Assembly (NCBI GenBank): GCA_965203805.1
Contig: OZ241917.1
Coordinates: forward strand, 5,760,001-5,824,000
Direction: 5' to 3'
DNA from: Candidatus Latescibacterota bacterium
GTDB taxonomy: Bacteria > Latescibacterota > UBA2968 > GCA-2709665
Length of the DNA stretch: 64,000 nt
The translations under genes and the position numbers were made by a program. Of the stretch, positions 5,701 to 56,379 are shown piece after piece. Positions within the stretch are counted from its first letter, which is position 1. Each line of letters starts with the position of its first letter. Below the pieces are notes generated by a model. The model ran no database searches and was not told the DNA's origin. It was given only the letters and a program-made list of their open reading frames with translations.

Positions 5701-6226
5701 CACTCTGAATATACCTTGCGCGACCGGGGTGTGAAAGAACAAACGGACTGTGATTGGCGTGATTAAAACCTGATTGCCGTGATTAAGGCAAAGGCGGGGA
5801 CATGATGAGAAGGACAGAACCAGAAGAACGGGAAGAGGTGGTGGAAGCTGAGTGGGCTGATTGCCGGAATCCGGGGCGTTTACGCCGGCACGAAGGCACG
5901 TGGAATTCGCAAGTCAAAACCAACAATCATGGATATACAGGATGAACAGGATAAAACCCAAAGAACCGGGCAGGGGCGGTGGAAGCTGATTATGCTTGTT
6001 GCACGAAACCGATGTCCGTCCAGCGACGAGGACTCGGGTGGAATTCGCAGATCAAAAGCAAAAAACATGGATGGGCAGGATGGGCAGGATAAAACCAAAC
6101 GAAAAGGCAAACCCGGTGGAAGCTGAGCGGCCAGGCTGCGCGGAACCGGTCATGAACGCCGACCCGGATGTCCGGACGTCCCAACTGACCTGGTTTCTCG
6201 TACCGCCTTTTCCGGTTTTACGCCTT

Positions 6227-6782
6227 TATCCTGCCTATCCTGTGTATCCATGTTCCACTGCATCAATTCTCGATGGTCATTCGCTACCAACCATTACCGA
6301 CATGGATGGACAGGATAAACAGGATAACATCCAAACCGGAAACACCAGGTCAAGCCAGCACATCAATTAAACCTGCCGTTGCAGTTCCTGATTCAGGCTT
6401 CACGAGATCGATGTCGCACACTGCCTCAGCGTGCTTGTAATGTACTACGGAGTCTCGTCATCGGCCGCAGACCGACCCCTGTTTTGCCTCTATCCTGCCT
6501 ATCCTGTGTATCCATGTTCCACTGCATCAATTCTCGATGGTCATTCGCTACCAACCATTACCGACATGGATGGACAGGATAAACAGGATAACATCCAAAC
6601 CGGAAACACCAGGTCAAGCCAGCACATCAATTAAACCTGCCGTTGCAGTTCCTGATTCAGGCTTCACGAGATCGATGTCGCACACTGCCTCAGCGTGCTT
6701 GTAATGTACTACGGAGTCTCGTCATCGGCCGCAGACCGACCCCTGTTTTGCCTCTATCCTGCCTATCCTGTGTATCCATGTT
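6227..6782. repeat. Exact 264 bp tandem duplication (~2.1 copies)
   Basis: 6227-6490 is repeated from 6491; the ORF track shows identical peptides 264 nt apart (e.g. 6379 and 6643). Confidence 0.9.
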
Positions 6783-6825
6783 AAATCGTGTGTTGCTTCT
6801 TGGGTTGTGGGGTGTCGTCATCCGT

Positions 6826-7209
6826 CTACCAGATGGTTTGTGCGTAATACGCACGGATGATCGCATCGGAGGTGACGATGGGGCAGGCGTTCAGGCTGGC
6901 CGTGGCGACGATGGTCCGATCGGCGGGGTCGCGATGGTCCCAGTCGAGTTCGAGATTTCCGAGCCACGTCCGGACGCAGACAGGGAGGATTTCGATGCGG
7001 TCGACCTGTTCCAACCTGTCAGCGAATTCCCGGATTGGAATCGGTATAAACAGTTGTTCTTTCTTGACCTTGATACCGATTTCCCAAATCGAAATCGCAC
7101 TGAGGGCAATCCTGTCGGCGTCCGCAATCGCCTGTGTGGCAGCATTCGACAGCCGATCTCGATCGAGCGTCCAGAATATGAGGGCGGAGGTGTCCAGGAG
7201 GACCATCAC
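6826..7209 (-). CDS. vapC: VapC/PIN-domain toxin
   Basis: VLLDTSALIFW...SAISIWEI...HRDPADRTIVATA...VTSD PIN signature; overlaps antitoxin stop. Confidence 0.9.
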   Translation of the reverse strand: MMVLLDTSALIFWTLDRDRLSNAATQAIADADRIALSAISIWEIGIKVKKEQLFIPIPIREFADRLEQVDRIEILPVCVRTWLGNLELDWDHRDPADRTIVATASLNACPIVTSDAIIRAYYAQTIW

Positions 7210-7436
7210 ATTTCCGTCCATTCATCGGCGGTCGGAAGGTTGACGTCGTCGCGGTAGATGACCTGGCCCGAAAGCGCGCCGAACACGTCGTCGACCGTCT
7301 TCTTTCTCGAAATCGGCTGGATGCGCAACACCGGGCGCCTGCGATCCGTTACGATCAACGACTCGCCGGATTCTTCAAGCTCGCGAAAGATGCGAAGCAT
7401 ATTGGCTTTCAATTTGCTCTTTGAGATGGAATTCAT
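7206..7436 (-). CDS. Phd/YefM family antitoxin
   Basis: ISKSKLKANML...GESLIVTDRRRPVLRI; 76 aa, directly upstream of PIN toxin. Confidence 0.85.
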   Translation of the reverse strand: MNSISKSKLKANMLRIFRELEESGESLIVTDRRRPVLRIQPISRKKTVDDVFGALSGQVIYRDDVNLPTADEWTEM

Positions 7437-7458
7437 ACGATCTCCTTACGTACTAGAA

Positions 7459-7513
7459 ATGACTATAGTCATAACTATGGTCATAATATACATAAATCAA
7501 GATATACTGTCAA
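7459..7513 (-). promoter_or_regulatory. Sigma70 promoter and palindromic operator of the TA operon
   Basis: Minus-strand TTGACA (7508-7513) N17 TATATT (7485-7490); palindrome ATGACTATAGTCAT (7459-7472) with an adjacent near-copy. Confidence 0.7.
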
Positions 7514-7681
7514 TTGAAACGACAGGGTATGACTAACCGGGACAAATCGAAAATTTCACATGGATGGACAGGATAGTGCTATCAAAAGTCCAAATTTCCG
7601 GCTGGCGGCGCACGGGAAATCTTGATTCTGTCGCGACGTTGGTTAAATTAGCCTTATTATCATAAGGAGAAGAAAATGCAC

Positions 7682-7966
7682 ATGAAGAATCCGCCGCATC
7701 CCGGGCTTTCGATACGGTTCGACTGTCTGGAGCCACTTGGATTGACTGTAGAACACGCAGCGCGAAAACTCGGCGTTGACAGGAAGGAGTTGTCAGATGT
7801 CGTTCACGGCCGAGCCGGCATCTCGCCCGAAATGGCGATTCGTCTGGACAAAGCCTTCGGCGGTGGCGCGCAAACGTGGTACCGGATGCAGGCGGCCTAC
7901 GACCTGGCTCAGGCGATTGCGAAGGCCGAAGAGATTCGCGTTGAGCGCCTCGTGGTTCACAGATGA
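7682..7966 (+). CDS. higA: HigA family HTH antitoxin (no adjacent HigB toxin)
   Basis: MKNPPHPG...AARKLGV...[14 protein letters not shown]...W.RMQAAYDL. Confidence 0.9.
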
Positions 7967-8280
7967 TTCCTGACTCGGCCCCGAGCACAATGGCTATTCT
8001 GTTCCTTCTTCTGACGGCATGATGCCGTTTTCGTTTCACCTGACCTGGTTTCTCGTACCGCCTTTTTTGATTTTACGCCTTTATCCTGTCTATCCTGTGC
8101 CGCTATGTTTCATTTTTCCTTGTCAGGATGATTGAGAATAAGATCAGTTTAAATCTCTCAAAGGTACAACTGTCCAATTAATGAAGCACAGGGGATTTTG
8201 ATTCCTCGAGACGATACGTTATATTCATCCCAATAGAAAACGTCAGGGATCGCATCACAACCCAAACCCGGAGGGTCACC

Positions 8281-8499
8281 ATGCAGACCACAACGCCCGC
8301 CGGCGATTTCGACGCCAGGCTTTCCCGCGTCGAGGGGATCGTTGAGCAGCAAAGCCAACGCTTGACGGCCCTCGAAACACGCGTTGACGCCGGTTTTCGC
8401 GAAGTGAACGCCCGCCTCGATAGCGGGTTTCGCTGGATTGTCGGCATTCAGTTTACTACGCTGGTTGCGCTTGGTACGCTGATTCTCTTGAAACTCTAA
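8281..8499 (+). CDS. Small coiled-coil protein with C-terminal transmembrane helix (DUF1640-like)
   Basis: GGAGG SD; heptad pattern then FRWIVGIQFTTLVALGTLILLKL. Confidence 0.65.
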   Translation: MQTTTPAGDFDARLSRVEGIVEQQSQRLTALETRVDAGFREVNARLDSGFRWIVGIQFTTLVALGTLILLKL

Positions 8500-8516
8500 C
8501 CCACCATCGGGCGCTG

Positions 8517-8671
8517 GGCCGGCATCTCGCCCGAGATGGCGATTCGTCTGGACAAAGCCTTCGGCGGTGGCGCGCAAACGTGGTACCGGATGCAGGCTGC
8601 GTACTACCTGGCTCAGGCGATGGAGAAGGCCGAAGAGATTCGCGTTGAGTGCCTTGTTTTCCACGAATAAA
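8517..8671 (+). pseudogene. 5'-truncated second copy of higA
   Basis: Near-identical to 7814-7966 (GCCGGCATCTCGCCCGA..ATGGCGATTCGTCTGGACAAAGCC...) but lacks the 5' half. Confidence 0.85.
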
Positions 8672-8744
8672 TCCGACTCGATTCCGAGCGCATCTGCCAC
8701 GCGGATTTTCTAATATCTCCAACTGCCTTTTATACATGGATGGA

Positions 8745-8777
8745 CCTGTCTGCGTGCGTGCCACACGCACAGGCAGG
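8745..8777. mobile_element. 33 bp palindromic element inserted in a CAGGAT repeat
   Basis: CCTGTCTGCGTGCGTGCCACACGCACAGGCAGG splits CATGGATGGA^CAGGATGAACAGGAT; identical copy at 15960-15992. Confidence 0.75.
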
Positions 8778-8960
8778 CAGGATGAACAGGATAAAGATCA
8801 CATACCTGCAATTTCCAGTCATCCCTGCGCACGATTCATTCCCGTCTTGTAGGATTTTCCTCCGCACGACATGAGCTCATTACGTCCCACCTGACCTGGT
8901 TTCTCGTACCGCCTTTTTTGATTTTACGCCTTTATCCTGCCTATCCTGTGTATCCATGTT

Positions 8961-9572
8961 TCATGTTTCGTTCTTCCGGTTTTCGTCGGTTTCTTCCCAT
9001 GCCTTCGTGAACGTCTCCGGCTCCACTCCGAGCGCATCGGCCACGCGGTTGATGTAGTTGAAAAAGCCGATGATCTGGACGGCATCGTGGATGGCGCGGT
9101 CGTCGAAACCGTGCTCGCGCAGCCGCTTGATATCCGCGGCGGTCGAGTCTCGCGGGTCCAGGCTGAGCTTCTCCGCGAAGGCGCACAGCGTACGGTCGGC
9201 GGGGGAGAGGGGGGCCTGGCGCCAGTCGGCGGCAATCAGATGCACCAGCCGGTCGGCCTCACTGTCATCTTCAACGCTGAAATCCGCGGCGACCTCGGCA
9301 CGGAGGTCGTGGGCGTGGGCGCGTATTCAGTACACGCAATGGTTCGCTGCTGAAACGACCACGGCGAGCATCTCTCGCTGCGCGCGGCTGAGCGGGGAGG
9401 GGCCGTGCATCAACGCGCCGTAGAAATCCAGCGACGCCTTCATCGCGCGGGGGTTCTGGCTCATCGCGGAGACAATGCCCCAGACGCGCCCCTCCCGCCC
9501 CATCGCGGCGTCATATTGTTGCTTCAACAAACCCGTCGCGGCCTCCGGAGGAATGACGTCGATATAGGGCAT
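8961..9572 (-). CDS. AhpD/carboxymuconolactone-decarboxylase family peroxidase-related protein, candidate selenoprotein (CxxU)
   Basis: ATG at 9572 after AAGGAGG; in-frame TGA at 9327-9329 in EMLAVVVSAANHCVY*IRAH; same frame continues to FFNYINRVADALGV; hairpin CGACCTC-CGTGCC-GAGGTCG just downstream of the TGA. Confidence 0.8.
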
Positions 9573-9665
9573 CGCGGCCTCCTTCGCAATATGGATCAAT
9601 GCGGAAACGGCAAAACCAAAAAGGCAAGGCAACTTCAACGACACAAAACAACAAACATGGATGAA

Positions 9666-9698
9666 CCTGTCTGCCGTGCCGGGCACGGCACAGGCAGG
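9666..9698. mobile_element. 33 bp palindromic element inserted in a CAGGAT repeat
   Basis: CCTGTCTGCCGTGCCGGGCACGGCACAGGCAGG at the same register as 8745; the duplicated locus at 12270 lacks it. Confidence 0.75.
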
Positions 9699-10150
9699 CA
9701 GGATGGGCAGGATAAAACCGTAAGAAACTACGAAAATCGCGAGAGTCACGAAAACCGCAAAGAACAGGCCAAGTCAAAACCGCCAAACATGGATGGACAG
9801 GATGAAACCACAACAACAGGGCAAAATCGGTGACAATTGTCTGCGCTCTTTGCTTGAGACCGACGCTCGAATTACGACACGGAGTCACGTGGACTACGCA
9901 AGTCAAAGACAATAAACATGGATAGACAGGATGAACAGGATAAAACCACTAAAACAGGCCAAATTCGGTAGAAGCTGACTGTCTACGTTGCCGGAAACCG
10001 AGGCACGAACGCCAACACGGACTCAGGTGGGAAAACCTAAACAACAAACATGAACAGACAGGATGGACAGGAAAAAAAGGAAAACAGAGCCGCAAAACCA
10101 GATCAACTGAATTGTTTCAAATTGCCAGATTCAGATTATCCATCGACATC

Positions 10151-10178
10151 TTGACAATCGCTCCAAATATACTATACT
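10151..10178 (+). promoter_or_regulatory. Putative sigma70 promoter
   Basis: TTGACA N16 TATACT. Confidence 0.5.
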
Positions 10179-10373
10179 TATGTGCAGTATTTGAGTTTGG
10201 CCTGCTATGCGATTCTGTATTGTGCCGACATATCGACGATTCGTCTGTGCAGTACCGGTTCGCGATTACTTTATTCACCCATCAACATAAGATACGACAG
10301 ACTGAAGATTCAAATCTGCAGATTTACGTTGTCGTCGTAGAGTTCGGGACGTCGGTTGCTGAGGTTAAGAAAA

Positions 10374-10703
10374 ATGAGTGCCGTTGACAAATTCCACGAC
10401 GAAGCCATGGAAGCCGCTTTTTTCGCCGATCAAGAACGGCGTAGGGGAAACAAAGAGCGGTCAGAGGAGTTGTTTGACCAGGCCCTGAGCCTGGAACTCA
10501 AGGCGCTCAGTGAAATGTCCGAGCCGGTGGAGCCAACTTATTCGATACTACACCGTAGTGCCGGGTGGCTGGCTTTGGACTGCAACCAGCCGCGCCTGGC
10601 AGAGCAGTTAGCCAGCAAAGCGCTTGCTGGCGAGCCGGACCCTCGAATTGCCGAGGAGCTCCGCAACCTGTTGGAAAAGATTAAAACCAATAAACATGGA
10701 TAG
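10374..10703 (+). CDS. Small helical (TPR-like) hypothetical protein
   Basis: MSAVDKFHDEAM...EPTYSILHRSAGWLALDC; stop codon falls inside a repeat copy. Confidence 0.6.
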   Translation: MSAVDKFHDEAMEAAFFADQERRRGNKERSEELFDQALSLELKALSEMSEPVEPTYSILHRSAGWLALDCNQPRLAEQLASKALAGEPDPRIAEELRNLLEKIKTNKHG

Positions 10704-10877
10704 ACAGGATGAACAGGATAAGACCAACAAAACCGGGCGAATTCGGTGGAAGCTCATTACGCATGTTGCCGAAGCCGATGTCCGAACGCCAACACGGAGT
10801 GACGTGTAATTCGCAGATCAAGACCAACAAGCATGGATGAACAGGATAAAACCGGAAGGCAGGGCAGATGCGGATAC

Positions 10878-10980
10878 TATAGAGAAAAGGATGTTTGACA
10901 AATGCTTCAAAAAATCACGCTGATCATTGCCTTCAACAAGCGGTTGTATTTTCGAATTTATCCCCTCGGCTCGCGACCTC
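10878..10980 (-). pseudogene. Possible remnant of DUF3226-like ATPase partner gene
   Basis: Immediately downstream of the ATPase: INSKIQPLVEGNDQRDF/(frameshift)/EAFVKH, then truncated near the repeat array. Confidence 0.45.
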
Positions 10981-10981
10981 C

Positions 10982-12025
10982 CTATCGAACCTCGAGATTA
11001 TTTCGGATTGCGGAATCGATTGCATCAGGTTCATAGGTGATACAACGGCTTGTTTTCTCGGCAATCTCGAGCCTGTGTAGCCGAAACCTGTCGTTGCTGA
11101 GAGAATCATGAGCTGCCACTATGCATTCCATACTGTGCGTGGTTGCGAATATCTGAGTCCGAAACTGCCTGGCCGCTTCATCGATAACGCGCCATACATC
11201 AGGTAGTGCCGTGTGGTGTATGCCGTTTTCGAGTTCATCTATCAAAACGACACCATCCGGTACGGAAGCGATACTCAATACAAGGCGGGCGACCTGGGTC
11301 ATGCCTTCGCCCATTACGGATAGCGGTACCAATTCGGACCATCCGATATCTCCCCAGATCATAGGTGAACCACTGGAAGATTTGTCCTCAATGCTCAGTA
11401 ATCTCGGTTCGAAAACCCGCAGTGCCTTCAGGAGCATATCTCCCCGCTCTTGCTGCCTTAACCGTCCAAACCTTACTGCGTCTTCGTGAATATTCCGATT
11501 TCGAGACGCGAGGATTATCGCCTGAAACGGGGGACTTGTCGGAGGCTGATCTACCTGAAAGCCCTGTTCCTTCATACGTATCTGGCTCGTTACCGAATTC
11601 GCTGACGGTCCAGTATACTCAAACGCGAGCAATTGCTCGTTGAGGAAATTTGTAGTGGACGTTCCATTCGTTCGGTCAAGGGGTATTTCGGTCGTCGGCT
11701 GTCTTTCCGAAGTGATCTTAAGGGTCAATTGAACGCGTGTTGAACGACGCGCGGTAATCTCGATCGATCGTCCCATATCCCGATTGAAAAAAAGCTGTTT
11801 CCAGAACGGATCGCCCGTAGAAACCCCGTGTGGCGCCAGGTCCCGAATGCCATTGTCATTCATTGCCAACTGAGTATTCCCCGCTCCGGACAGAAGAAAA
11901 ACCGCTTCAAGCAGGCTTGTCTTTCCAGAGTTGTTTTTCCCGGCAATCAGGTTGATGGCACTCAAGTGGTCAATCTCAAGCGCACCAAACCCACGGAAAT
12001 TACGTATCTGCAGGCGTGTCAACAT
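10982..12025 (-). CDS. ABC-type AAA ATPase (AAA_15/AAA_21, defence/TA-associated)
   Basis: IRNFRGF, Walker A GKNNSGKT, signature GEG, Walker B LIDELENGIH, TTHS; lower GC than core genes. Confidence 0.9.
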   Translation of the reverse strand: MLTRLQIRNFRGFGALEIDHLSAINLIAGKNNSGKTSLLEAVFLLSGAGNTQLAMNDNGIRDLAPHGVSTGDPFWKQLFFNRDMGRSIEITARRSTRVQLTLKITSERQPTTEIPLDRTNGTSTTNFLNEQLLAFEYTGPSANSVTSQIRMKEQGFQVDQPPTSPPFQAIILASRNRNIHEDAVRFGRLRQQERGDMLLKALRVFEPRLLSIEDKSSSGSPMIWGDIGWSELVPLSVMGEGMTQVARLVLSIASVPDGVVLIDELENGIHHTALPDVWRVIDEAARQFRTQIFATTHSMECIVAAHDSLSNDRFRLHRLEIAEKTSRCITYEPDAIDSAIRNNLEVR

Positions 12026-12126
12026 CGCCGCGTCTCCCGGCTTTCAGCCAACGACCCAAACTGATGCGGTTCGGACATTATATCGAAAATGATTGTGTAA
12101 ATCAAATCGTTCAACGATGACGCCGA

Positions 12127-12186
12127 ATACTGCTGCTTCAACAAACCCGTCGCGGCTTCCGAAGGAATGACGTGGATATAGGGCAT
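12127..12186 (-). pseudogene. Duplicated 5' fragment of the AhpD-like gene with its upstream region
   Basis: MPYIHVIPSEAATGLLKQQY vs MPYIDVIPPEAATGLLKQQY; ~12128-12300 matches ~9515-9720. Confidence 0.85.
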
Positions 12187-12816
12187 TCGCGGCCTTTTTC
12201 CGACATGGATCAATGCGGAAACGGAAAAACCAAAAAGGCAAGGCAACTTCAACGACACAAAACATCAAACATGGATGGACAGGATAGTCAGGATAAAACC
12301 ACAACAACAGGGCAAATGCGGTGGAAGCCGAATGCCTTGGCTGTCAGCGGACCCTCCAACGCTGACACGGAGTCACGTGGAATAATCGAAACCAAAACAA
12401 CAAACATGGATGGACAGGATACACAGGATAAGTGCATAAGAACGGGGCAAATACGGCGGAAGCTGAATGCCTTGGCTGTCCAGCGGACCCTCCAACGCTG
12501 ACACGGAGTCACGTGGAATAATCGAAACCAAAACAACAAACATGGATGGACAGGATACACAGGATAAAACCACTAAAACAGGGCAGAAACGGCGAAGCAG
12601 ACTATGCTTGTTGCTTGACGCCGACGCCTGAACGCCGACACGGACTCATGTGGACTTCGCAAGTCAAAGACAATAAACATGGATGGACAGGATGAACAGG
12701 ATAAAACCACTAAAACAGGGCAGAAGCGTTGAAGCCGATTATGCTTGTTGTACGAAACCGACATCCGGCTGCCGACAAGGACCAGGTTTTTTCCAATCAA
12801 TCCAGAGGTGTCGTTT

Positions 12817-13227
12817 TTATTCCTGCCCTTTCTGAGTCCGTGTAAATCGTTTAAACTCCAACTTAGGCTTCCCGAAGTTGATCAGCAGCCCCACCTCAAC
12901 GCGGGTGGCATTCAGATAGTTGATGATCTGGGCTTCGTGCTCCCTGGTGATGGCTCTGACCGCCTTGAGTTCCACGATCACTTTGTTCTCCACCAGAATA
13001 TCAGCGACATAATCGCCGACCGTTTCACCTCGAAAACGCACACGAATAGGCCGCTGTGTTTCGTGCGAAATACCGGCGTCGGTTAAGGCAACTTTCATCG
13101 CCTTCTCGTAAACTGATTCCAGGAATCCACTCCCGAGTTCTTTCGTCACGTCCAAAGCACATCCGATTATCTTCCGGGTCAAGCCAGCGTGTAACAACCC
13201 TTTATCTTGCCTATCCTGTCTATCCAT
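12817..13227 (-). CDS. GxxExxY protein (PD-(D/E)XK nuclease superfamily)
   Basis: LT.KIIGCA..V..ELGSGFLESVY, ADILVENKVIVELKAV, AQIINYL, GLLINFG; N-terminus MDRQDRQDK encoded by a repeat copy. Confidence 0.92.
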   Translation of the reverse strand: MDRQDRQDKGLLHAGLTRKIIGCALDVTKELGSGFLESVYEKAMKVALTDAGISHETQRPIRVRFRGETVGDYVADILVENKVIVELKAVRAITREHEAQIINYLNATRVEVGLLINFGKPKLEFKRFTRTQKGQE

Positions 13228-13699
13228 AGTTTCCCTGTTTCAAATCTCGATGGACCTTCGCTACCGTTTGCAACTTACATGGATGGACAGGATACACAGG
13301 ATGAAAACCTACAAAAGCCGGCAAAGCCCGTCAGTGATTCGAGTCGATGTTGTCTGATTCTCGTTCTTCGACTTGTTTCTTCCCCGTTACTTGTCTTTCT
13401 GCTTTTATCCTGCCTATCCTGTTCATCCGTGTTGTATGGTTTTGATCTTTCGTCTTGGTTCTTCCCCGTTGTTGTCTGGCTCTTATCCTGCCTATCCTGT
13501 GTATCCATGTTTCGTGGTCTTGATTTTTCGATTTGCTTTTCCCCGTTGTTGTCCCGCTCTCTGGTTTTCAGGTTTTGTCCTGTTTCTCCATGATTCCTGG
13601 GTCTTCGGTTTGCTTCTTCCCGTTTTTTTGGCTTTCCGCTTTTATCCTGTCCATCCTGTATATCCATGTTCCCCTGTATCAATCCTCGATGGTCTCTCG

Positions 13700-14197
13700 C
13701 TACCACCCGCCCACCTGCGTCCGGTCCACGATATCCCGTGTGAGGATGTCGAACGCGGCGCCGAGGCCTGCGTGCCGGGCTTCCTCGCGCTGGCCGGCGG
13801 CGCTGTAGATACCGTATCCCTTCAGGCGCTTCTCCTCCCACAACAGCTTCTTGTTCTTCACGTCGAAACAGCTGACGTCCAGGAAGACCGAAATCTGGAA
13901 CTGGTCCTCCTGGCCGCGGTAGGTGAACGGGTCGTCCCGCACCTCCACGATCGTGCCGCGAAGCACGACGTCCGCACGGTCCTCGTCCGTCACGCGCAGC
14001 GCCGCGTCCTGGATGAACGCCTGGATCAGGCTGTCCGTTAGGGCCTGCTGGATCTCCGGCTCCAGGCTCTCGTTCTCCATCAGCGGAATGGCCACCGAGC
14101 GGAAACCCGATCCGCCGGTCGCGGAGGTCGAATAGTACGCGCATCCGCCCAGCCCGAACAGGACCAGCGCGGCGCAGGGAAGGAGAGAACGCTTCAA
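13700..14197 (-). CDS. lptE: LptE-like lipoprotein
   Basis: Lipobox LGGC, SVAIPLMENES, ADVVLRGTI. Confidence 0.75.
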   Translation of the reverse strand: MKRSLLPCAALVLFGLGGCAYYSTSATGGSGFRSVAIPLMENESLEPEIQQALTDSLIQAFIQDAALRVTDEDRADVVLRGTIVEVRDDPFTYRGQEDQFQISVFLDVSCFDVKNKKLLWEEKRLKGYGIYSAAGQREEARHAGLGAAFDILTRDIVDRTQVGGW

Positions 14198-15777: not shown

Positions 15778-16414
15778 GATTCGTCCCTTTGAAGGATGCG
15801 TACGAAGAGGCAGACGTTAGCGAGGGTTGAATGACCTCGGACGGTCCGGCTTGCGACGCCGGATTTCACAACCGCCGCCAAGGTACAATATTAACCTCAA
15901 TTCGAAAAAAGAAAACCGAAAAATCGGCCACGAAAAGCACAAAAGGCCTGCCTGCAGCGCCTGTCTGCGTGCGTGCCACACGCACAGGCAGGCACAGAAA
16001 GCATCGGTGCAATGCGGCGTGTGTCGTAACGCGGTGACCCTGCAGTTATTTCCTCACCGGGCCGAAAAGGTCGTCCGGAAGCACACTTTTTTTGTTTACG
16101 TCCAATGACCCGCAGGTTCCTGGAAATCCGACGTTAACTCACGTTTATCAACTTGCATATGTTCGAACTGACGTTCCCGAAAAATGACGAATGGAGGTTA
16201 AAGACGGGAGTCCAAAAAGGCAGGCCCGTCGACCCCGTATGAATCTGTACAATCGCGTCTCAGCGCGCCTTTCCTGCGGCCCGACAGAATCCGCTTGCGC
16301 GGGCGCGACAGTTGTGCGTACTTTCCACAACACTGTTCCTGCGTGATCCGTCCCGTGCACTCGAGCTGCATCGGGACCGGTTTATCGGAAATTCATCAGA
16401 AAAGGAGGTCGCCC

Positions 16415-16879
16415 GTGAACGTGGAAGTCACTATTAACGGCGAGCGCCACAGCCACGACGTGGAGCCCAGGCTGCTGCTTGTGCATTATCTGCGCGACGT
16501 CGTTGGTCTCACCGGCACCCACGTCGGCTGCGAAACGAGCCTTTGCGGCGCCTGCACGGTGATGCTCGACGGGCAGGCTGTGAAATCCTGTACACTGCTC
16601 GCGGTACAGGCGAACGGCGCCGAGATTACCACCATCGAGGGCCTGGCCGAGAACGGCGAACTTCATCCCGTACAGGAGGGCTTCTGGGAATGTCACGGCC
16701 TTCAGTGCGGTTTCTGCACGCCCGGGATGATCATCGCCGCCCACCAGTTGTTGCAGCGCAACTCGCGGCCCACCGAGGCGCAGATCCGTCGCGGCATCGA
16801 GGGCAACCTGTGCCGCTGCACCGGGTACCAGCACATTGTGGACGCCGTCCAGTACGCGGCCCGAAAGATGAGATCCTGA
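16415..16879 (+). CDS. coxS: Molybdenum hydroxylase small [2Fe-2S] subunit (CoxS/CutS-like)
   Basis: [27 protein letters not shown]; AAGGAGG SD with GTG start. Confidence 0.9.
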
Positions 16880-16892
16880 AAGGAGATCTTCC

Positions 16893-19223
16893 ATGCCTGT
16901 CAGCAAATCCGTAGGCGCCAGAATCAAGCGCAGGGAAGATCCCAGGCTGATCCAGGGCCTTGCGCAATACGTAGACGACATCCAGTTGCCGGGCACGCTG
17001 CACGTCGCGGTGCTCCGCAGCCCGTACGGGCACGCGCACATCCGCGGCATCGACGCCTCGGCCGCCTCGGACCATCCGGGCGTGGTGGCCGTGGTTACCG
17101 GCGAAGATCTGAAGGACAACATCGGCACCATTCCCTGCGCCACCACCGATCCCGAGGGCTTTCCGGGCATCCAGGTCCCGGAACATCCGGTCCTGGCGCA
17201 GGGTAAGGTACGGTTCGTCGGGGAGCCGGTTGCGGCCGTGGTCGCCGACAGTTCGTATGCCGCCAGGGACGCTGCTGAACTCATCGAGGTGGACTACGAC
17301 CCGCTCGACGCCGTCAACTCGTCCGAGGCGGCGCTGGCTGACGGCGCCCCGCTTCTGCACGAACAATTCGGCAGCAACCAGGCCTTCACCTGGGCGATTG
17401 CCGGCGGCGACATCGACGACGCCTTCGCTCAGGCCGACCGCGTGGTCAAACAGCGTTTCAACCACCAGCGGCTGGTGCCCAACCCGCTGGAAACCCGGGG
17501 TGTGGTCGCACAGTTTCAACCCGGCGACGGAAAGCTCACGGTCTGGTCGTCCACGCAGATCCCGCATCTGCTCAGGACCCAGCTTTCGGTCATTCTCAAC
17601 CGGCCGGAGCAACTCGTGCAGGTCATCGCTCCCGAGGTGGGCGGCGGATTCGGCTGCAAGCTGAACGTCTACGCCGAGGAAGCCCTGGTGGGTCACCTGG
17701 CCATCCAGCTCAAGAGGCCGGTCAAGTGGATCGAAAGCCGGAGGGAGAACTTCCTGCACACCATCCACGGGCGGGACCAGGTCGGCGACGTGGAGATCCC
17801 CGTCAAGAACGACGGGACCATCCTGGGCCTCAAATACACCGTGGAGGCCGACGTGGGCGCGTACTACCAGTTGCTCACGCCGGCGATCCCCACCCTCACG
17901 GGGCTGATGCTCTGCGGTTGTTACAGGTTCCAGAACGTCTCGATGGAACTCACCGCGGCCTTCACCAACAAGATGGCCACCGACGCGTACCGCGGCGCGG
18001 GCAGGCCGGAAGCCACGTACCTCATCGAACGCATGCTGGACTGCGTGGCTCACGATCTGGACATGGATCCCCTGGAGGTCCGCCGAAGGAACTTCATCGG
18101 CAAGGACGAGTTTCCCTTCGAAACCGGCACGGCAGTCGCCTACGACAGCGGCGACTACGAGATCGCGCTCAACAAGGCGCTCAGGAAGATTGACTACGAA
18201 GGCTTCCGCAAGGAACAGGCGGACGCCCGCGAACAGGGCCGGTACCTGGGCATCGGCTTCTCCACGTACGTGGAGATCTGCGGCATGGGGCCCTCGGCGG
18301 CCATGCCGGCGGGCGGCTGGGAGAGCGGCACCGTAAGGGTGGACCCGACGGGCAAAGTCACCGTTCTCACCGGTGTCTCGCCCCACGGCCAGGGGCAGGA
18401 AACCACGTTTGCGCAGCTCATCGCCGACGGGCTCGGGGTGGATATCGACGACGTGCGGATCATCCACGGCGATACCGAAGCCGTGCAGTACGGCATCGGC
18501 ACGTTCGGTTCCCGCGCGACCGCGGTGGGCGGTACGGCCATGGTAATGGCGATGGAAAAGATCAAGGAAAAGGCCGTCAACATCGCCGCGCACCTGCTGG
18601 AGAGCAACCCGCAGGACATCGTCGTCGACGACGGCAAGTACGGCGTCAAGGGCTCGCCCGACCAGGGCGTCACCCTGGCGGAGATATCCATGGCCGCACA
18701 CGGGGGCGTGAATCTGCCGCCGGATACCGAGCCGGGTATGGCGGCCACCCATTTCTTCGAGCCGTCCAACTTCACCTACCCGTTCGGCACGCACATCGCC
18801 ATCGTGGAAGTGGACGCGGACACCGGAGAGGTGGACATCCTGCGGTATATCGCCGTTGACGACTGCGGCCAGATCATCAACCCGCTGATCGTCGAGGGTC
18901 AGATCCACGGGGGCATCGCCCAGGGTCTGGGCCAGGCGCTATATGAAGAGGCCATCTACGACGAGAGCGGGCAGATGCTCACCGGCTCGTTCATGGACTA
19001 TGCGCTGCCCAAGGCGCACAACTTCCCGCGCTTCGAGCTCGACAACACGGTCACGCCCTCGCCGGTGAATCCGATGGGCGTCAAGGGCGTGGGAGAGGCG
19101 GGCACCATCGGCTCCACGCCGTCCATCGTCAACGCGGTGGTGGACGCGCTCAAACCGTTCGGCGTGCGGCACATCGACATGCCGCTGCGTCCCGAAAAAC
19201 TCTGGAAGCTCATGCAGGGGTAG
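16893..19223 (+). CDS. coxL: Molybdenum hydroxylase large subunit (form II CoxL-like / xanthine dehydrogenase family)
   Basis: VGGGFGCK, AYRGAGR, HGQGQET, GQIHGG, GVKGVGE. Confidence 0.88.
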   Translation: MPVSKSVGARIKRREDPRLIQGLAQYVDDIQLPGTLHVAVLRSPYGHAHIRGIDASAASDHPGVVAVVTGEDLKDNIGTIPCATTDPEGFPGIQVPEHPVLAQGKVRFVGEPVAAVVADSSYAARDAAELIEVDYDPLDAVNSSEAALADGAPLLHEQFGSNQAFTWAIAGGDIDDAFAQADRVVKQRFNHQRLVPNPLETRGVVAQFQPGDGKLTVWSSTQIPHLLRTQLSVILNRPEQLVQVIAPEVGGGFGCKLNVYAEEALVGHLAIQLKRPVKWIESRRENFLHTIHGRDQVGDVEIPVKNDGTILGLKYTVEADVGAYYQLLTPAIPTLTGLMLCGCYRFQNVSMELTAAFTNKMATDAYRGAGRPEATYLIERMLDCVAHDLDMDPLEVRRRNFIGKDEFPFETGTAVAYDSGDYEIALNKALRKIDYEGFRKEQADAREQGRYLGIGFSTYVEICGMGPSAAMPAGGWESGTVRVDPTGKVTVLTGVSPHGQGQETTFAQLIADGLGVDIDDVRIIHGDTEAVQYGIGTFGSRATAVGGTAMVMAMEKIKEKAVNIAAHLLESNPQDIVVDDGKYGVKGSPDQGVTLAEISMAAHGGVNLPPDTEPGMAATHFFEPSNFTYPFGTHIAIVEVDADTGEVDILRYIAVDDCGQIINPLIVEGQIHGGIAQGLGQALYEEAIYDESGQMLTGSFMDYALPKAHNFPRFELDNTVTPSPVNPMGVKGVGEAGTIGSTPSIVNAVVDALKPFGVRHIDMPLRPEKLWKLMQG

Positions 19224-19323
19224 GTCGCATGCCCGTTCCGTCAGGGCGCGCGGAAAACCGGCCGACGATCGGTTGGACGCGCCCGCGCGGATGTTCAAAT
19301 CTTCGATACCTGGAGAGAAGCCA

Positions 19324-20190
19324 ATGATTCCCAGCCCATTCGACTATCACGCGCCGAAGACCCTGAGAAAGGCGCTCAGTCTGCTTCAGGAACACGGCGG
19401 CGACGCGAAGATCCTGGCAGGCGGCCACAGCCTGATCCCGCTGATGAAGCTGCGGTTCGCCTCGCCGGCAACCCTCATCGACCTGGGCGGCATTTCGGGT
19501 CTGCGGAAGGTCGTCGCGGGAAACGAAACCATCTCGATCGGCGCCCTTGCGACGCACCATGCCGTCGAGAGCCACCGGCTGCTGAAATCCAGATGCGGCC
19601 TGCTCCCTGAAACCGCGACGGCGATCGGCGACGTCCAGGTGCGCAATCGCGGCACGGTAGGCGGAAGCCTGGTCCATGCGGATCCCGCAGCGGACTGGCC
19701 GGCCACCATGCTGGCGTTGAACGCGGAACTCGACGTCTCCGGCCCCGGGGGCGACCGGAGCGTTGCCATCGGCGATTTCTTCGAAGACCTGCTCACCACC
19801 GCCATCGGCGACGACGAAATCCTCACCCGCATCCGCATCGCCACGCCGCCGGACGGTTCCGGAGGCGCGTACGTCAAGATGCATCAGTCCGCTTCGGGAT
19901 TCGCCATCTGCGGCGTTGCCGCGCAGGTCACACGGAGCAACGGCGCCTGCGCGTCGGTCGCCATCGGCGTGACGGGCGTTTCGGCGGTGGCCTACAGGGC
20001 TTCTGCCGCGGAAGCCGCGCTGCAGGGCGGACCGCTCAACGCCGAGACCATCGCCGCGGCAGCCGACAAGGCCGCCGACGGCGTGGACGACTATCAGGAA
20101 GACCACCACGCCTCGGGCGAGTACCGGGCGCACCTGGCCAGGGTCTTCACCCGCCAGGCGCTTACTCGTGCCGCCGAGCGTGCCGCCTGA
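19324..20190 (+). CDS. coxM: FAD-binding medium subunit (CoxM-like)
   Basis: AGGHSLIPLMKLR, VRNRGTVGG, HADPAAD. Confidence 0.9.
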   Translation: MIPSPFDYHAPKTLRKALSLLQEHGGDAKILAGGHSLIPLMKLRFASPATLIDLGGISGLRKVVAGNETISIGALATHHAVESHRLLKSRCGLLPETATAIGDVQVRNRGTVGGSLVHADPAADWPATMLALNAELDVSGPGGDRSVAIGDFFEDLLTTAIGDDEILTRIRIATPPDGSGGAYVKMHQSASGFAICGVAAQVTRSNGACASVAIGVTGVSAVAYRASAAEAALQGGPLNAETIAAAADKAADGVDDYQEDHHASGEYRAHLARVFTRQALTRAAERAA

Positions 20191-25550: not shown

Positions 25551-27137
25551 GTGGATCAATCGATCGACCTGTCGTCCCTTCACGCCCTCGAAGTCAAGAC
25601 GTTGCGCGCCTTCGAGCCCAGTGACGAACACGAGCTGACCGACGCCGTCCTGCCCGAAGCGGCGGGCATCGGTCCCGGACAGGCCCGGCGCGCCGTGGAA
25701 TGGCTGCGTTCCAAGGGTCTCCTGGACGTCGCCGGCGAAGCCACGGTCTCGACCGTGAGCCTCACCGATTCGGGTGTCGCCCAGGCCGGTCTCGGCTCAA
25801 CGCCGGAGGCCGCGCTTCTGCTGCGCGCCCAGGGAGAGCCCGCACCCACGCTGAAGCACCTGCAGGCGGATACCCGCTTCGACCGCGGAGAATGGGGCAG
25901 CGCCTTCGGCGGGCTGAAGGCCGAAGGCACGATCACGCAGGACGGCGCCTCCATCCGCATCGCCGATCCCGACAGAGCCGCCTTCTACACCGAGCGGCTC
26001 GTGCCGGGGCTGTTCGGGCGCTTTCGGGAGGCCGGCGAGGGGGCCGCGCTGAATCTGGACGACTTTACCGAAGAGATGCAGTCATATATCCGGGAAAGAA
26101 CGAGCAAACGCGGCAAGGGCAAGGCCGCCATCCGAGTGGACGAACGCCTGGAACGCACGTACAGGCTCACGCCGGCCGGTGTGGGGACGCTGGAGCGCAT
26201 TCTGGAAACCGGGCTGACGGGCGACGAGGTCTCCCGCCTCACGCCGGAGATGTTGCAGTCGGGCGCCTGGAGAAACGTCTCGTTCCGGCGTTACGACATC
26301 AGCATCAAGCCCCCGCGTATTCTCATCGGCCGCCTGCACCCGTACCGCGCCTATCTCGACGGTGTCCGGCGCAAACTGCTGTCTCTCGGGTTCGAGGAAA
26401 TGAAGGGCCCGCTGGTCGAGACCGAATTCTGGAATATGGATGCCCTTTTCATGCCGCAGTTCCACGCGGCGCGAAATATCCATGACGCCTACTACGTCAA
26501 AGAGCCCGTCCGTTCGGATGCGCCCGAAGAACCCTTCTTCTCGAATGTGGCCGCCGCCCACGCCCACGGCGGCGACACCGGCTCCCGAGGCTGGCGGTAC
26601 GAATTCAGTCCGGCCCGCGCGCGCCGCCTCATCCTGCGCAGCCAGGGTACCGCGCTGTCGGGCCGCACGCTTGCATCCGGTCCGAACGTCCCGGGGAAGT
26701 ATTTCGCGGTTGCGCGATGCTTCCGGTACGACGACGTCGACGCCACCCACGCCGCCGATTTCTTCCAGGTGGAGGGTATCGTCCTGGGCGAGGGCATCAA
26801 TTTCCGGAGTCTGCTGGGCCTGCTGAAGCTGTTTGCGCTGGAAATCGCGCAGTCGGACGAATGCCGGTTTGTGCCGGACTATTTCCCGTTCACCGAGCCC
26901 TCGGTCGAGCTCCAGGCCAGGCACCCGTCGCTGGGCTGGATCGAATTCGGCGGCGCCGGCCTGTTCCGGCCCGAACTCACGCGCCCGCTGGGCGTCGAGG
27001 TTCCGGTCATCGCATGGGGTCTGGGCATCGACCGGATGGCGATGGTGGCCCTGGACATAGACGACATCCGCGACCTGTTCAGCACGGACCTGGACCTGAT
27101 CCGGAACGAAAGAGAAAACAGGCCGGCCGCCACCTGA
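25551..27137 (+). CDS. pheS: Phenylalanyl-tRNA synthetase alpha subunit, long archaeal/eukaryote-type
   Basis: GRLHP, FWNMDALF.PQ.H.AR, FRYD..DATH..FFQVEG, YFPFTEPS, AWGLGIDR; 528 aa with N-terminal extension. Confidence 0.95.
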   Translation: MDQSIDLSSLHALEVKTLRAFEPSDEHELTDAVLPEAAGIGPGQARRAVEWLRSKGLLDVAGEATVSTVSLTDSGVAQAGLGSTPEAALLLRAQGEPAPTLKHLQADTRFDRGEWGSAFGGLKAEGTITQDGASIRIADPDRAAFYTERLVPGLFGRFREAGEGAALNLDDFTEEMQSYIRERTSKRGKGKAAIRVDERLERTYRLTPAGVGTLERILETGLTGDEVSRLTPEMLQSGAWRNVSFRRYDISIKPPRILIGRLHPYRAYLDGVRRKLLSLGFEEMKGPLVETEFWNMDALFMPQFHAARNIHDAYYVKEPVRSDAPEEPFFSNVAAAHAHGGDTGSRGWRYEFSPARARRLILRSQGTALSGRTLASGPNVPGKYFAVARCFRYDDVDATHAADFFQVEGIVLGEGINFRSLLGLLKLFALEIAQSDECRFVPDYFPFTEPSVELQARHPSLGWIEFGGAGLFRPELTRPLGVEVPVIAWGLGIDRMAMVALDIDDIRDLFSTDLDLIRNERENRPAAT

Positions 27138-27190
27138 CGCGCTGGGAAACGGAATTCGCGCATCCCGCGCGTATGTATCAAGGAGCACGC

Positions 27191-28876
27191 ATGCCCACCA
27201 TCACCGTGATCAGGAAAGACCTCGAACGGCTCGCGGGTCAGGCCTACGACCTGCCCGAGCTCGAACGCGCCCTCGAGGCCGTCAAAGCCGAGGTCAAGGT
27301 CGAAGACGACGATCTGTTGAAGATCCAGCTGAAGGATACCAATCGGCCGGACCTGTGGTCGTCGGAGGGTGTCGCCCGGCTGCTCAAGGGTCAACGCGAG
27401 GGTGTGCACGAACCCTATGGGTTTTTCGATGACCCGCCAGGGGAACTCGAACTGCGCGTCGACCCCGCGCTGGAAGGCCTCCGTCCCTACATCGCCGCCT
27501 TCGCCTGCGAAGGGATCTCGGTGGACGAAGCGGCCCTCGATCAGCTCATCGAGGCTCAGGAAAAACTGGCGGAAGGCTACGGGCGCGGTCGAAGCGCCGT
27601 CGCCATCGGCATCTACGACGCTTCCGACGTCGCCTTTCCCGTCCGCTACGCCGCGGCCGATCCGGATGCGACCCGCTTTGTCCCGCTGGGGATGGAGACC
27701 GGGCTGACCCTTCGGGATATCCTGAGCGAACACGCCACGGGCCGAACGTACGCGCACCTGCTGGAAGGCTTCAGCGCCTTTCCCCTCATCACCGACAGCC
27801 GGGGCGAGGTCCTCTCCATGCCTCCCGTGATCAACAGCCGGAACCCGGGCGCGGTTGAGGTCGGGGACTCGTTTCTCTTCTGCGAGGCCACCGGAACGGA
27901 CCTCGACGCCGTGCTGCTTTCCGTTGCCATCATGGCCGCCAACATGGCCGACCGGGGAGGACGCATCCTGCCCGTGAACACCATCTATCCTTACGATACG
28001 CCGCGCGGGCGCGAGATCCGGTGCCCTCTGGATATGACCGAAACCGTCGAAGTCGACCTGGACGACCTCCGGCGCGTGATCGGCGGCGCCATAGACAACG
28101 AAAGCATCGAACGCGCCCTGGCCGCCATGGGGTACCGGGACGTCGCGCTGGACCGCAACCGCGTCCGGGCCCGGCCGGCGCCGTACCGGGACGATATCCT
28201 CCATCCCGTGGACCTCATCGAAGACGTTATCGTGGCGGTGGGCTTCGACAACTTCGAACCCGAATTGCCGCACGATTTCACCGTTGGCAAGTCCGCGCCC
28301 GAGGAGGACCTTGCCGACCGCATCCGCGGCCTGATGGTCGGCTGCGGATTCCAGGAAGTCTTTCTGCCGATTCTCTCGTCGCGCGCCGACCTGACGGAGG
28401 GCGTGCGCGACACCGGCGCCGGGATTGTCGAGATCTCCAACCCTATGTCCGAGAACTACAGCGCGGTTCGTAACGCCCTGCTGCCCGGGCTTCTGCGCGT
28501 GGAAGCCGCGAGCCGGAAAGCCCCCTATCCCCATCATATCTTCGAGGTGGGCGAGGTCTGCGTCATCGCGCGGGACGACCTTTACGGCACCCGTACCGAA
28601 ATCTGCCTGGCGGCGCTGGAGGCCCACGCCGACGCCAATCTCTCGGGGATCCAGAGCCATCTCGAAGCCATCGCCTACTACCTCGGATTCGACTATCGTC
28701 TCACGCCGTCCGAGCACCCCACGTTTCTGCCCGGGCGGGCGGGCGAAATCCGTTTGGACGGGAATCGCTTCGGCATCATCGGCGAAATCCATCCCGAGGT
28801 TCTGGAGAACTGGGGAATATCCGTGCCCGTGAGCGCGTTCGAGGTCAACATCGATATCGCCGGAACGCAATCGTAA
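27191..28876 (+). CDS. pheT: Phenylalanyl-tRNA synthetase beta subunit, short archaeal-type
   Basis: MPTITV start, NRPDLWS.EG, VLSMPPVINS, R.DILH.VD..ED, GEIHPEVL; 561 aa. Confidence 0.95.
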   Translation: MPTITVIRKDLERLAGQAYDLPELERALEAVKAEVKVEDDDLLKIQLKDTNRPDLWSSEGVARLLKGQREGVHEPYGFFDDPPGELELRVDPALEGLRPYIAAFACEGISVDEAALDQLIEAQEKLAEGYGRGRSAVAIGIYDASDVAFPVRYAAADPDATRFVPLGMETGLTLRDILSEHATGRTYAHLLEGFSAFPLITDSRGEVLSMPPVINSRNPGAVEVGDSFLFCEATGTDLDAVLLSVAIMAANMADRGGRILPVNTIYPYDTPRGREIRCPLDMTETVEVDLDDLRRVIGGAIDNESIERALAAMGYRDVALDRNRVRARPAPYRDDILHPVDLIEDVIVAVGFDNFEPELPHDFTVGKSAPEEDLADRIRGLMVGCGFQEVFLPILSSRADLTEGVRDTGAGIVEISNPMSENYSAVRNALLPGLLRVEAASRKAPYPHHIFEVGEVCVIARDDLYGTRTEICLAALEAHADANLSGIQSHLEAIAYYLGFDYRLTPSEHPTFLPGRAGEIRLDGNRFGIIGEIHPEVLENWGISVPVSAFEVNIDIAGTQS

Positions 28877-55968: not shown

Positions 55969-56379
55969 CGAATTACCGGCCCTTGGTCCGGTATCTGAAG
56001 AAGCTCGAATCGAGACCAGTCGACACCGGCCGGATCAGAGCGGCCTGAATCTGTGCGAAACCACTATGGAAACGCTCCTCGACGTTCGAAGAACCGGTTG
56101 TATTGCATCCCGTATAAAAAAAACGCGCGACTTTCCTGCTTGCGCGTCGAACTCAGTAAAGCACCTTGTGAAAACCGGCCCTTTCCGTTGATACTCCTCC
56201 GCAAGAAGGTTCGCAGGTACGCAATTATAATATCAGCCAAATTTATATTATCGGGGGCGGGATGTCAAGCGAAAACTCCCGAAATCATCGCATCGAAAAA
56301 GGTGCATGCGGTACGTGAACGCGCCCCCTTGCGCACGACGTTCAAGATTACCGGCGCGGTCCGCATCCGGGACAGGACG

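Follow-up and report, generated by a model that had tools for sequence, protein, structure and literature searches.

The window analysed here, a stretch of DNA of 64,000 nucleotides taken as a whole, carries on its minus strand an AhpD-like gene that is split by an in-frame TGA and that contains a hairpin downstream of this codon, which confirms the observation made in an earlier note on this DNA. With high confidence, this gene is considered to encode a single AhpD-like thiol/selenol oxidoreductase of 203 amino acids with a CxxU active site. The selenocysteine interpretation that the earlier note had given to codon 82 is thus supported and very likely, on the basis of a conserved TGA, a SECIS-type hairpin selected at the RNA level, a complete AhpD spacing of catalytic residues, and the use of TGA as an ordinary stop codon in the window. 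A nonsense mutation, a recoded genome or a two-gene split are unlikely in view of the conserved TGA and hairpin, the locked synonymous codons and the compensatory changes. If this reading is true, the annotation would be mended, one intact enzyme replacing two fragments, and the host would be a likely selenocysteine user.

Gene structure

The feature is located on the minus strand, the strand being absent from the earlier note; a plus-strand reading of 8961-9572 was discarded, a meaningful protein being absent. The following elements were identified:

8961..9572, minus strand: AhpD-like (TIGR01926, CMD fold) selenoprotein gene, predicted, 203 amino acids with the internal UGA read through
9578..9584, minus strand: Shine-Dalgarno-like AAGGAGG, 5 nt upstream of the ATG at 9572, proposed from the sequence
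9327..9329, minus strand: in-frame TGA at codon 82, a predicted selenocysteine where CxxC has its second Cys, TGA in 80/80 best relatives

The frame opens with the ATG at 9572, runs through 81 open codons to the TGA at 9329-9327 (codon 82, in the context HCVY*IRAH) and ends with a terminal TGA at 8963-8961. As had been described, two same-frame ORFs are separated by the TGA at 9327-9329 alone: the internal stop is single, the read-through product counts 203 amino acids and the TGA is codon 82 of the minus-strand frame, which is where selenocysteine had been placed. ORF calling with table 11 also reproduced the expected pair of fragments, namely 9327-9749 (with an upstream GTG start) and 8961-9245. 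The first matched codon is ATG in 74 of 80 relatives (the best 80 of at least 593 found in GTDB). No sigma-70-like promoter was found between positions 8700 and 9900 of the window.

Protein family, fold and catalytic residues

The read-through protein, in which U was scored as C for the profile comparison, matches TIGR01926 with 141.5 bits (cut-off 81.8) over model positions 6-175 of 178; the fragments taken alone score 50.6 and 73.8 bits, both below this cut-off. The read-through protein also matches Pfam CMD and passes the core domain model TIGR00778 (44.6 vs 27.8). Two further models were failed, namely TIGR00777 for the mycobacterial AhpD (22.5 vs 191.95 bits) and NF041238 AhpD_rel_CFYUT (69.8 bits vs a cut-off of 175), which likewise describes an AhpD-related CxxU (seleno)protein but represents a separate and longer family (357 positions).

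By sequence, the nearest solved structures are 6K40 (E 2e-29), 2OYO, 2PFX, 3C1L and 2PRR, Cys homologs whose fold is common to the window protein (TM 0.79-0.82). A Cys faces the TGA codon in the alignments with 6K40 and 2OYO, and Cys is also found opposite codon 82 in 16 more distant CxxC homologs among the proteins listed by a protein search; the TGA does stand where CxxC homologs have their second Cys. The solved Cys homologs carry CxxC whereas the window protein would carry CxxU, and the clade of the window gene differs from them by a conserved, SECIS-constrained AHAHDLRxEV stretch, followed by an insertion of about 10 residues.

An AlphaFold2 model, built from a 92-sequence alignment with Cys in place of Sec (pLDDT 96, pTM 0.91), superimposes on 6K40 with a TM of 0.80 and suggests that the read-through product folds as one AhpD-like domain. 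A single-sequence structure prediction was discarded (pLDDT 41.6). The model contains a two-helix hairpin made of helices 63-76 and 80-98, with the TGA near the start of the second one. The following residues occupy catalytic positions:

9372..9374, minus strand: Glu67, glutamate of the proton relay (equivalent to PA0269 Glu36 and Mtb AhpD Glu118), Glu in 80/80 best relatives
9336..9338, minus strand: Cys79, first residue of CxxU, Cys in 80/80 best relatives
9315..9317, minus strand: His86, histidine of the proton relay (equivalent to PA0269 His55 and Mtb His137), His in 80/80 best relatives

Tyr81 is kept in all 80 relatives as well (best 80 of at least 593). According to the available part of PMC3141380, the relay of PA0269 consists of Glu36, Cys48, Tyr50, Cys51 and His55, with Glu118, Cys130, His132, Cys133 and His137 as counterparts in Mtb AhpD. 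The offsets between Glu67, Cys79, Tyr81, codon 82 and His86 are exactly those of the PA0269 relay, and the same Glu(-12)/Cys/Tyr(+2)/(+3)/His(+7) spacing is shared with Cys homologs including 6K40 of D. radiodurans and PA0269 of P. aeruginosa (2O4D). Mtb AhpD (TIGR00777) has the two-helix catalytic hairpin too, and its Glu118, Cys130, Cys133 and His137 have equivalents in the window protein; it differs by His132, where the window protein has Tyr81, and no ahpC adjoins the window gene. A more remote likeness of fold was found with the debrominase Bmp8 (6OHI and 6OHJ, TM 0.70-0.71) and with sestrin2 (TM 0.59-0.63), at 17-19% identity; these two proteins show that the fold is capable of chemistry beyond peroxide reduction.

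Conservation of the in-frame TGA

A scan of GTDB, for which the pattern was taken from the C-terminal region of the protein, returned at least 593 relatives, of which the best 80 were analysed. The TGA was not favoured by this selection of loci, since the scan pattern was C-terminal and the query carried Cys at position 82. The earlier note had named an unconserved UGA in close homologs as one of two observations that would speak against its reading, and this check did not contradict it: codon 82 is TGA in 80/80 of these best relatives (of at least 593), and never TAA or TAG. None of the best 80 relatives has a further internal stop, a terminal stop being present at the match edge in three. 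Pairwise identities among them range from 47 to 98% (median 60%), and the window gene is at most 70% identical to its best GTDB relative. The best 80 relatives belong to Chloroflexota (40), Gemmatimonadota (18), Planctomycetota (9), Pseudomonadota (4), Latescibacterota (3), Actinomycetota (2) and Calditrichota (1), and three are unlabelled.

If the UGA were a real stop, the locus would be either a pair of genes born from a split or a pseudogene with a nonsense mutation. Gene calls do come as fragments: a protein search gave 347 matches at E <= 1e-10, and position 82 is uncovered in 57 of the 120 matches listed, 41 of these starting exactly at residue 83. However, the codon remains TGA, never TAA or TAG, across 80/80 best relatives with a median identity of 60%, and an ATG, GTG or TTG that could serve as a restart lies within codons 83-86 in just 2 of the 80, so that a true split fails. 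Moreover, such a stop would sever the catalytic helix 80-98 and lose the second redox residue. This explanation is consequently regarded as extremely improbable.

Where position 82 is covered among the 120 listed proteins, it is occupied by W (36), C (22), R (2), and G, L or D (1 each). Many of the 36 proteins with W at the Sec position come from contigs of about 1 kb, and the two with R are P0017 and P0097. The W-bearing proteins are probably products of gene calls made with code 4 or otherwise mis-coded, since they are interleaved with TGA loci in the tree. These W residues are also what could be invoked for a genome-wide reading of UGA as Trp or Gly (code 4 or 25), which would give a CxxW or CxxG protein. 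Several observations argue against it: TGA ends 13 of the 19 other window genes checked, and the TGA-ended genes for RNase Y, RecN, ThrRS and MqnC match their family models through to the end (514/514, 562/563, 564/565 and 342/342, respectively); Trp is encoded by TGG 219 times in 43 ORFs; among the best 80 relatives, 36 of the 79 with a visible stop end the AhpD-like gene itself in TGA; and the W proteins do not stand apart from TGA loci in the tree. The terminal TGAs of the window genes therefore dismiss recoding in this host, and almost no weight is left to it.

A small T-x-Y-C clade (P0019-P0022 and P0027), located amid the TGA and W forms, has Cys at the Sec position and has lost the first Cys. 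It looks like a reversion from Sec to Cys, giving a one-Cys enzyme.

SECIS-type hairpin

The hairpin that the earlier note had described, CGACCTC-CGTGCC-GAGGTCG with a GU-containing loop 24 nt past the UGA, was found at 9309-9290 within the coding sequence:

9290..9309, minus strand: bacterial SECIS-type hairpin, within the coding sequence (codons 88-95), with a 7-bp stem and the loop CGUGCC at 9302-9297

It has a 6-nt loop, which is separated from the UGA by 24 nt and in which the second nucleotide is a G and the third a U. The bSECIS rules given in the available part of PMC13188914 consist of a loop of 3-9 nt, a stem of 4-16 bp and a G in the first two loop positions, together with a loop located 16-37 nt after the UGA and an MFE <= -7.5 kcal/mol. 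These rules were coded anew for the scan, and the window hairpin conforms to them (loop 6, stem 7, spacer 24, -10.5 kcal/mol). The bacterial SECIS prediction that had been proposed as a check is thus positive, though 116 of the 1649 TGA triplets of the window (7%) pass as well. In the single sequence, the stability of the hairpin is not above chance (z = -0.79; 40/200 shuffles fold equally well), and stability was dropped as evidence for a SECIS on account of this z of -0.79. It is by its conservation that the hairpin rises above chance, the TGA and the loop start CG(U/G)G at spacer 24 both being present in 80/80 relatives (best 80 of at least 593 in GTDB). Furthermore, 61 of the 80 internal TGAs pass the full bSECIS rules, whereas among the terminal TGAs of these genes 1 of 36 does; 19 of the 80 loci miss the energy cut-off.

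The hairpin is under selection at the RNA level, as seen from a lock on synonymous codons and from compensatory changes. Indeed (i) Leu90 is encoded by CTC in 78/78 cases, CTC making up 29% of the codons at other Leu sites of those genes, (ii) Arg91 is encoded by CGT (48) or CGG (32) and by CGC in 0/80, CGC reaching 43% elsewhere, (iii) the first base of codon 92 is G in 80/80 though the residue varies (Ala, Glu, Val, Asp), (iv) Glu93 is GAG in 78 genes, and the two GAA cases coincide with both genes that have Phe90 (TTC), and (v) the genes with Ile94 have GAT at codon 89 in 10/10 cases, by which the pair is kept, GAT occurring in just 13/80 overall. Stem pairing is observed in 98% of 546 cells (78 distinct rows), with two-sided changes in 3 of the 7 pairs (16 cells, which are sequences and not events). 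In a shuffle control, which ignores kinship, 0/500 shuffles reached the observed values for pairing, cell count or covariation, the pair count being reached by 19/500 and the pair-type count by 373/500. The same helix was recovered unprompted by RNAalifold.

A second match to the UGA-plus-hairpin covariance model is located at 56316-56348 on the plus strand. It is weak, with 13.6 bits as against 62 for the true site in the AhpD-like gene, is without a matching gene and was taken as a chance match.

Selenocysteine machinery and placement of the gene in the tree

Neither selA, selB, selD nor a tRNA-Sec was found when the 64-kb window and the flanks of the 80 loci (1.22 Mb) were searched with short motifs and ARAGORN, and with Rfam for the window only. 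This is weak evidence, since the window and the flanks are small parts of each genome. A tRNA-Sec-like pattern match at one of the 80 loci (L050) was rejected, being un-tRNA-like on reading and not called by ARAGORN. A six-frame scan of the window for redox motifs at TGA, judged by eye, gave no other convincing selenoprotein candidate.

In a quick tree, the window gene groups with two Latescibacterota genes, both of which keep the TGA (SH-aLRT 86, weak); by path length, Chloroflexota rows lie nearest to it, and the terminal branch of the window gene is 0.31. Two genes labelled 'Klebsiella' (L010, L011) are placed among Roseiflexaceae (SH-aLRT 99), whereas L058, labelled 'Gammaproteobacteria', groups with Gemmatimonadota (100); these look like wrong record labels or gene transfer.

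This negative search for the machinery bears on whether the UGA could be decoded, with the aid of the hairpin, by a non-standard route other than selABC, for instance with insertion of cysteine. In addition to the lack of Sec machinery in the window and flanks, a literature search gave no report of SelB for Latescibacterota, the phylum to which the two genes next to it in the tree are assigned, the passages retrieved dealing with Deltaproteobacteria. On the other hand, the hairpin fits published SelB-type rules, sel genes may sit far from their clients, and Sec is reported in two of the main host phyla, with Sec machinery and selenoproteins in some Planctomycetes (PMC4807772) and selenoproteins in Chloroflexi (PMC1794560), according to the available parts of these papers. 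Such a route is accordingly given little credit. The same low standing is given to a broader version of it, in which the clade would carry an unusually rigid and portable SECIS (same spacer and loop start in 80/80 genes of several phyla), some of its hosts, perhaps including this one, would have no recognisable selA, selB or selC, and decoding of the UGA would fall to a system that is divergent or as yet undescribed.

The gene could also be a correct selenoprotein gene that is silent in its host, having been gained, or retained once the Sec machinery was lost, and yielding a useless 81-amino acid piece. Its repeat-rich surroundings, with toxin-antitoxin genes and scraps of a second copy, would fit this, as would the mixing of phyla in the gene tree, which suggests transfer. 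However, the frame, the ribosome-binding site, the catalytic residues and the hairpin are all intact, the terminal branch of 0.31 is ordinary, and the window gene groups, though weakly (SH-aLRT 86), with the two Latescibacterota genes that retain the TGA. A silent gene is therefore improbable, and a functional selenoprotein gene is the preferred reading.

Previously predicted AhpD-like selenoproteins

The window gene is a further member of a family predicted since 2005. In the available parts of the publications, AhpD-like CxxU selenoproteins are described for the Sargasso Sea (2005, 27 sequences; PMC1088965) and for the GOS data (2008, 299 sequences, as 'AhpD-like 1'; PMC2398784). The family goes under the labels 'AhpD-like 1', COG2128, TIGR01926 and CxxU. 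In the part of supplement file 3 of the GOS study that was available (PMC2398784), YUIRAH occurs 134 times and a 16-residue Sec motif identical to that of the window gene occurs 4 times; by position and neighbours, these four entries are among 'AhpD-like 1'. More recently, 'AhpD-like protein, TIGR01926, CxxU' is listed in a 2026 review with MCB9421940.1 as representative (PMC13188914), and the browsing example of BSepDB is the AhpD-like family (PMC13326102), as given in the available text of both. Table 1 of a 2022 review, in the portion available, places the family under 'Predicted', as unverified (PMC9312934). No literature combining AhpD-like, selenocysteine and 75Se was found in a search that left most subscription journals outside.

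With the TIGR01926 model, the CxxU motif and the 16-residue motif in common, the window gene shows nothing different in kind from this family, and selenium specialists would expect no surprise from it. The clade is nonetheless under-counted, because databases mostly carry fragments or probably false Trp forms, and the shortness of the gene and its very clean SECIS would make it a handy test case for a family predicted for twenty years and unverified in 2022.

Proposed mechanism

By the established bacterial Sec pathway, SelB would bind the G(U/G) loop located 24 nt past the UGA and deliver Sec-tRNA(Sec); without selenium or SelB, translation would end at 81 amino acids. By analogy to AhpD, a Glu-water-His relay could activate residue 82, the selenolate could then attack either a hydroperoxide or a disulfide in an oxidised partner protein, for example a peroxiredoxin, and Cys79 could resolve the intermediate to a selenenyl-sulfide that would be recycled by a cellular reductant. 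In AhpD, the second Cys of CxxC is the attacking residue. A role of residue 82 as the key residue fits the five clade-nested proteins in which position 82 is Cys and Cys79 is replaced by Thr. Cys130, the first Cys of Mtb AhpD, is termed essential in the available part of PMC3141380, where the reduction of H2O2 by PA0269 is described as weak only.

A peroxide or a partner disulfide is the best guess for the substrate and, by analogy, a likely one. The substrate is uncertain in view of the weak H2O2 activity of PA0269, the presence of the debrominase Bmp8 in the fold and the lack of a conserved partner gene nearby. Indeed, no conserved adjacent partner gene was found in the flanks of the best 80 loci, where the largest neighbour cluster, ABC ATPase-like by eye, is present at 19 loci and at scattered distances; the peroxide role consequently rests on analogy.

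Genomic surroundings

Scraps of a second copy of the gene are present on both of its sides. A second copy of its upstream region and first 20 codons or so is located at 12127-12280 on the minus strand (91% over 155 nt); it diverges well before the UGA, and its Shine-Dalgarno sequence is altered. A 33-nt match (88%) to the 3' part of the gene (RVADALG.E) is located at 8672-8704 on the minus strand, the match being weak at the protein level (E 0.73). With one scrap at 8672-8704 and the other at 12.2 kb, the two lie on either side of the intact gene in the correct order, which looks like a copy broken up by an insertion.

The region 5800-13700 contains degenerate repeats with a core of about CATGGATGGACAGGAT..ACAGGATAA, in up to 15 copies and in both orientations, some copies being spaced by 135-138 nt, and an exact 264-nt tandem duplication is present at 6222-6749. 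The small genes of this region encode a PIN and Phd-like pair, HigA with a partial second copy, an AAA_21 ATPase and a GxxExxY protein. Further along the window, a molybdenum hydroxylase cluster of three subunits is encoded at 16295-20190 on the plus strand; its large subunit scores 780 for glyceraldehyde dehydrogenase (cut-off 790) and is also below the cut-off for aerobic CO dehydrogenase. An archaeal-type phenylalanyl-tRNA synthetase is encoded amid a bacterial context at 25551-28876 on the plus strand, its beta subunit passing TIGR00471 pheT_arch (477 vs 283) and failing pheT_bact.
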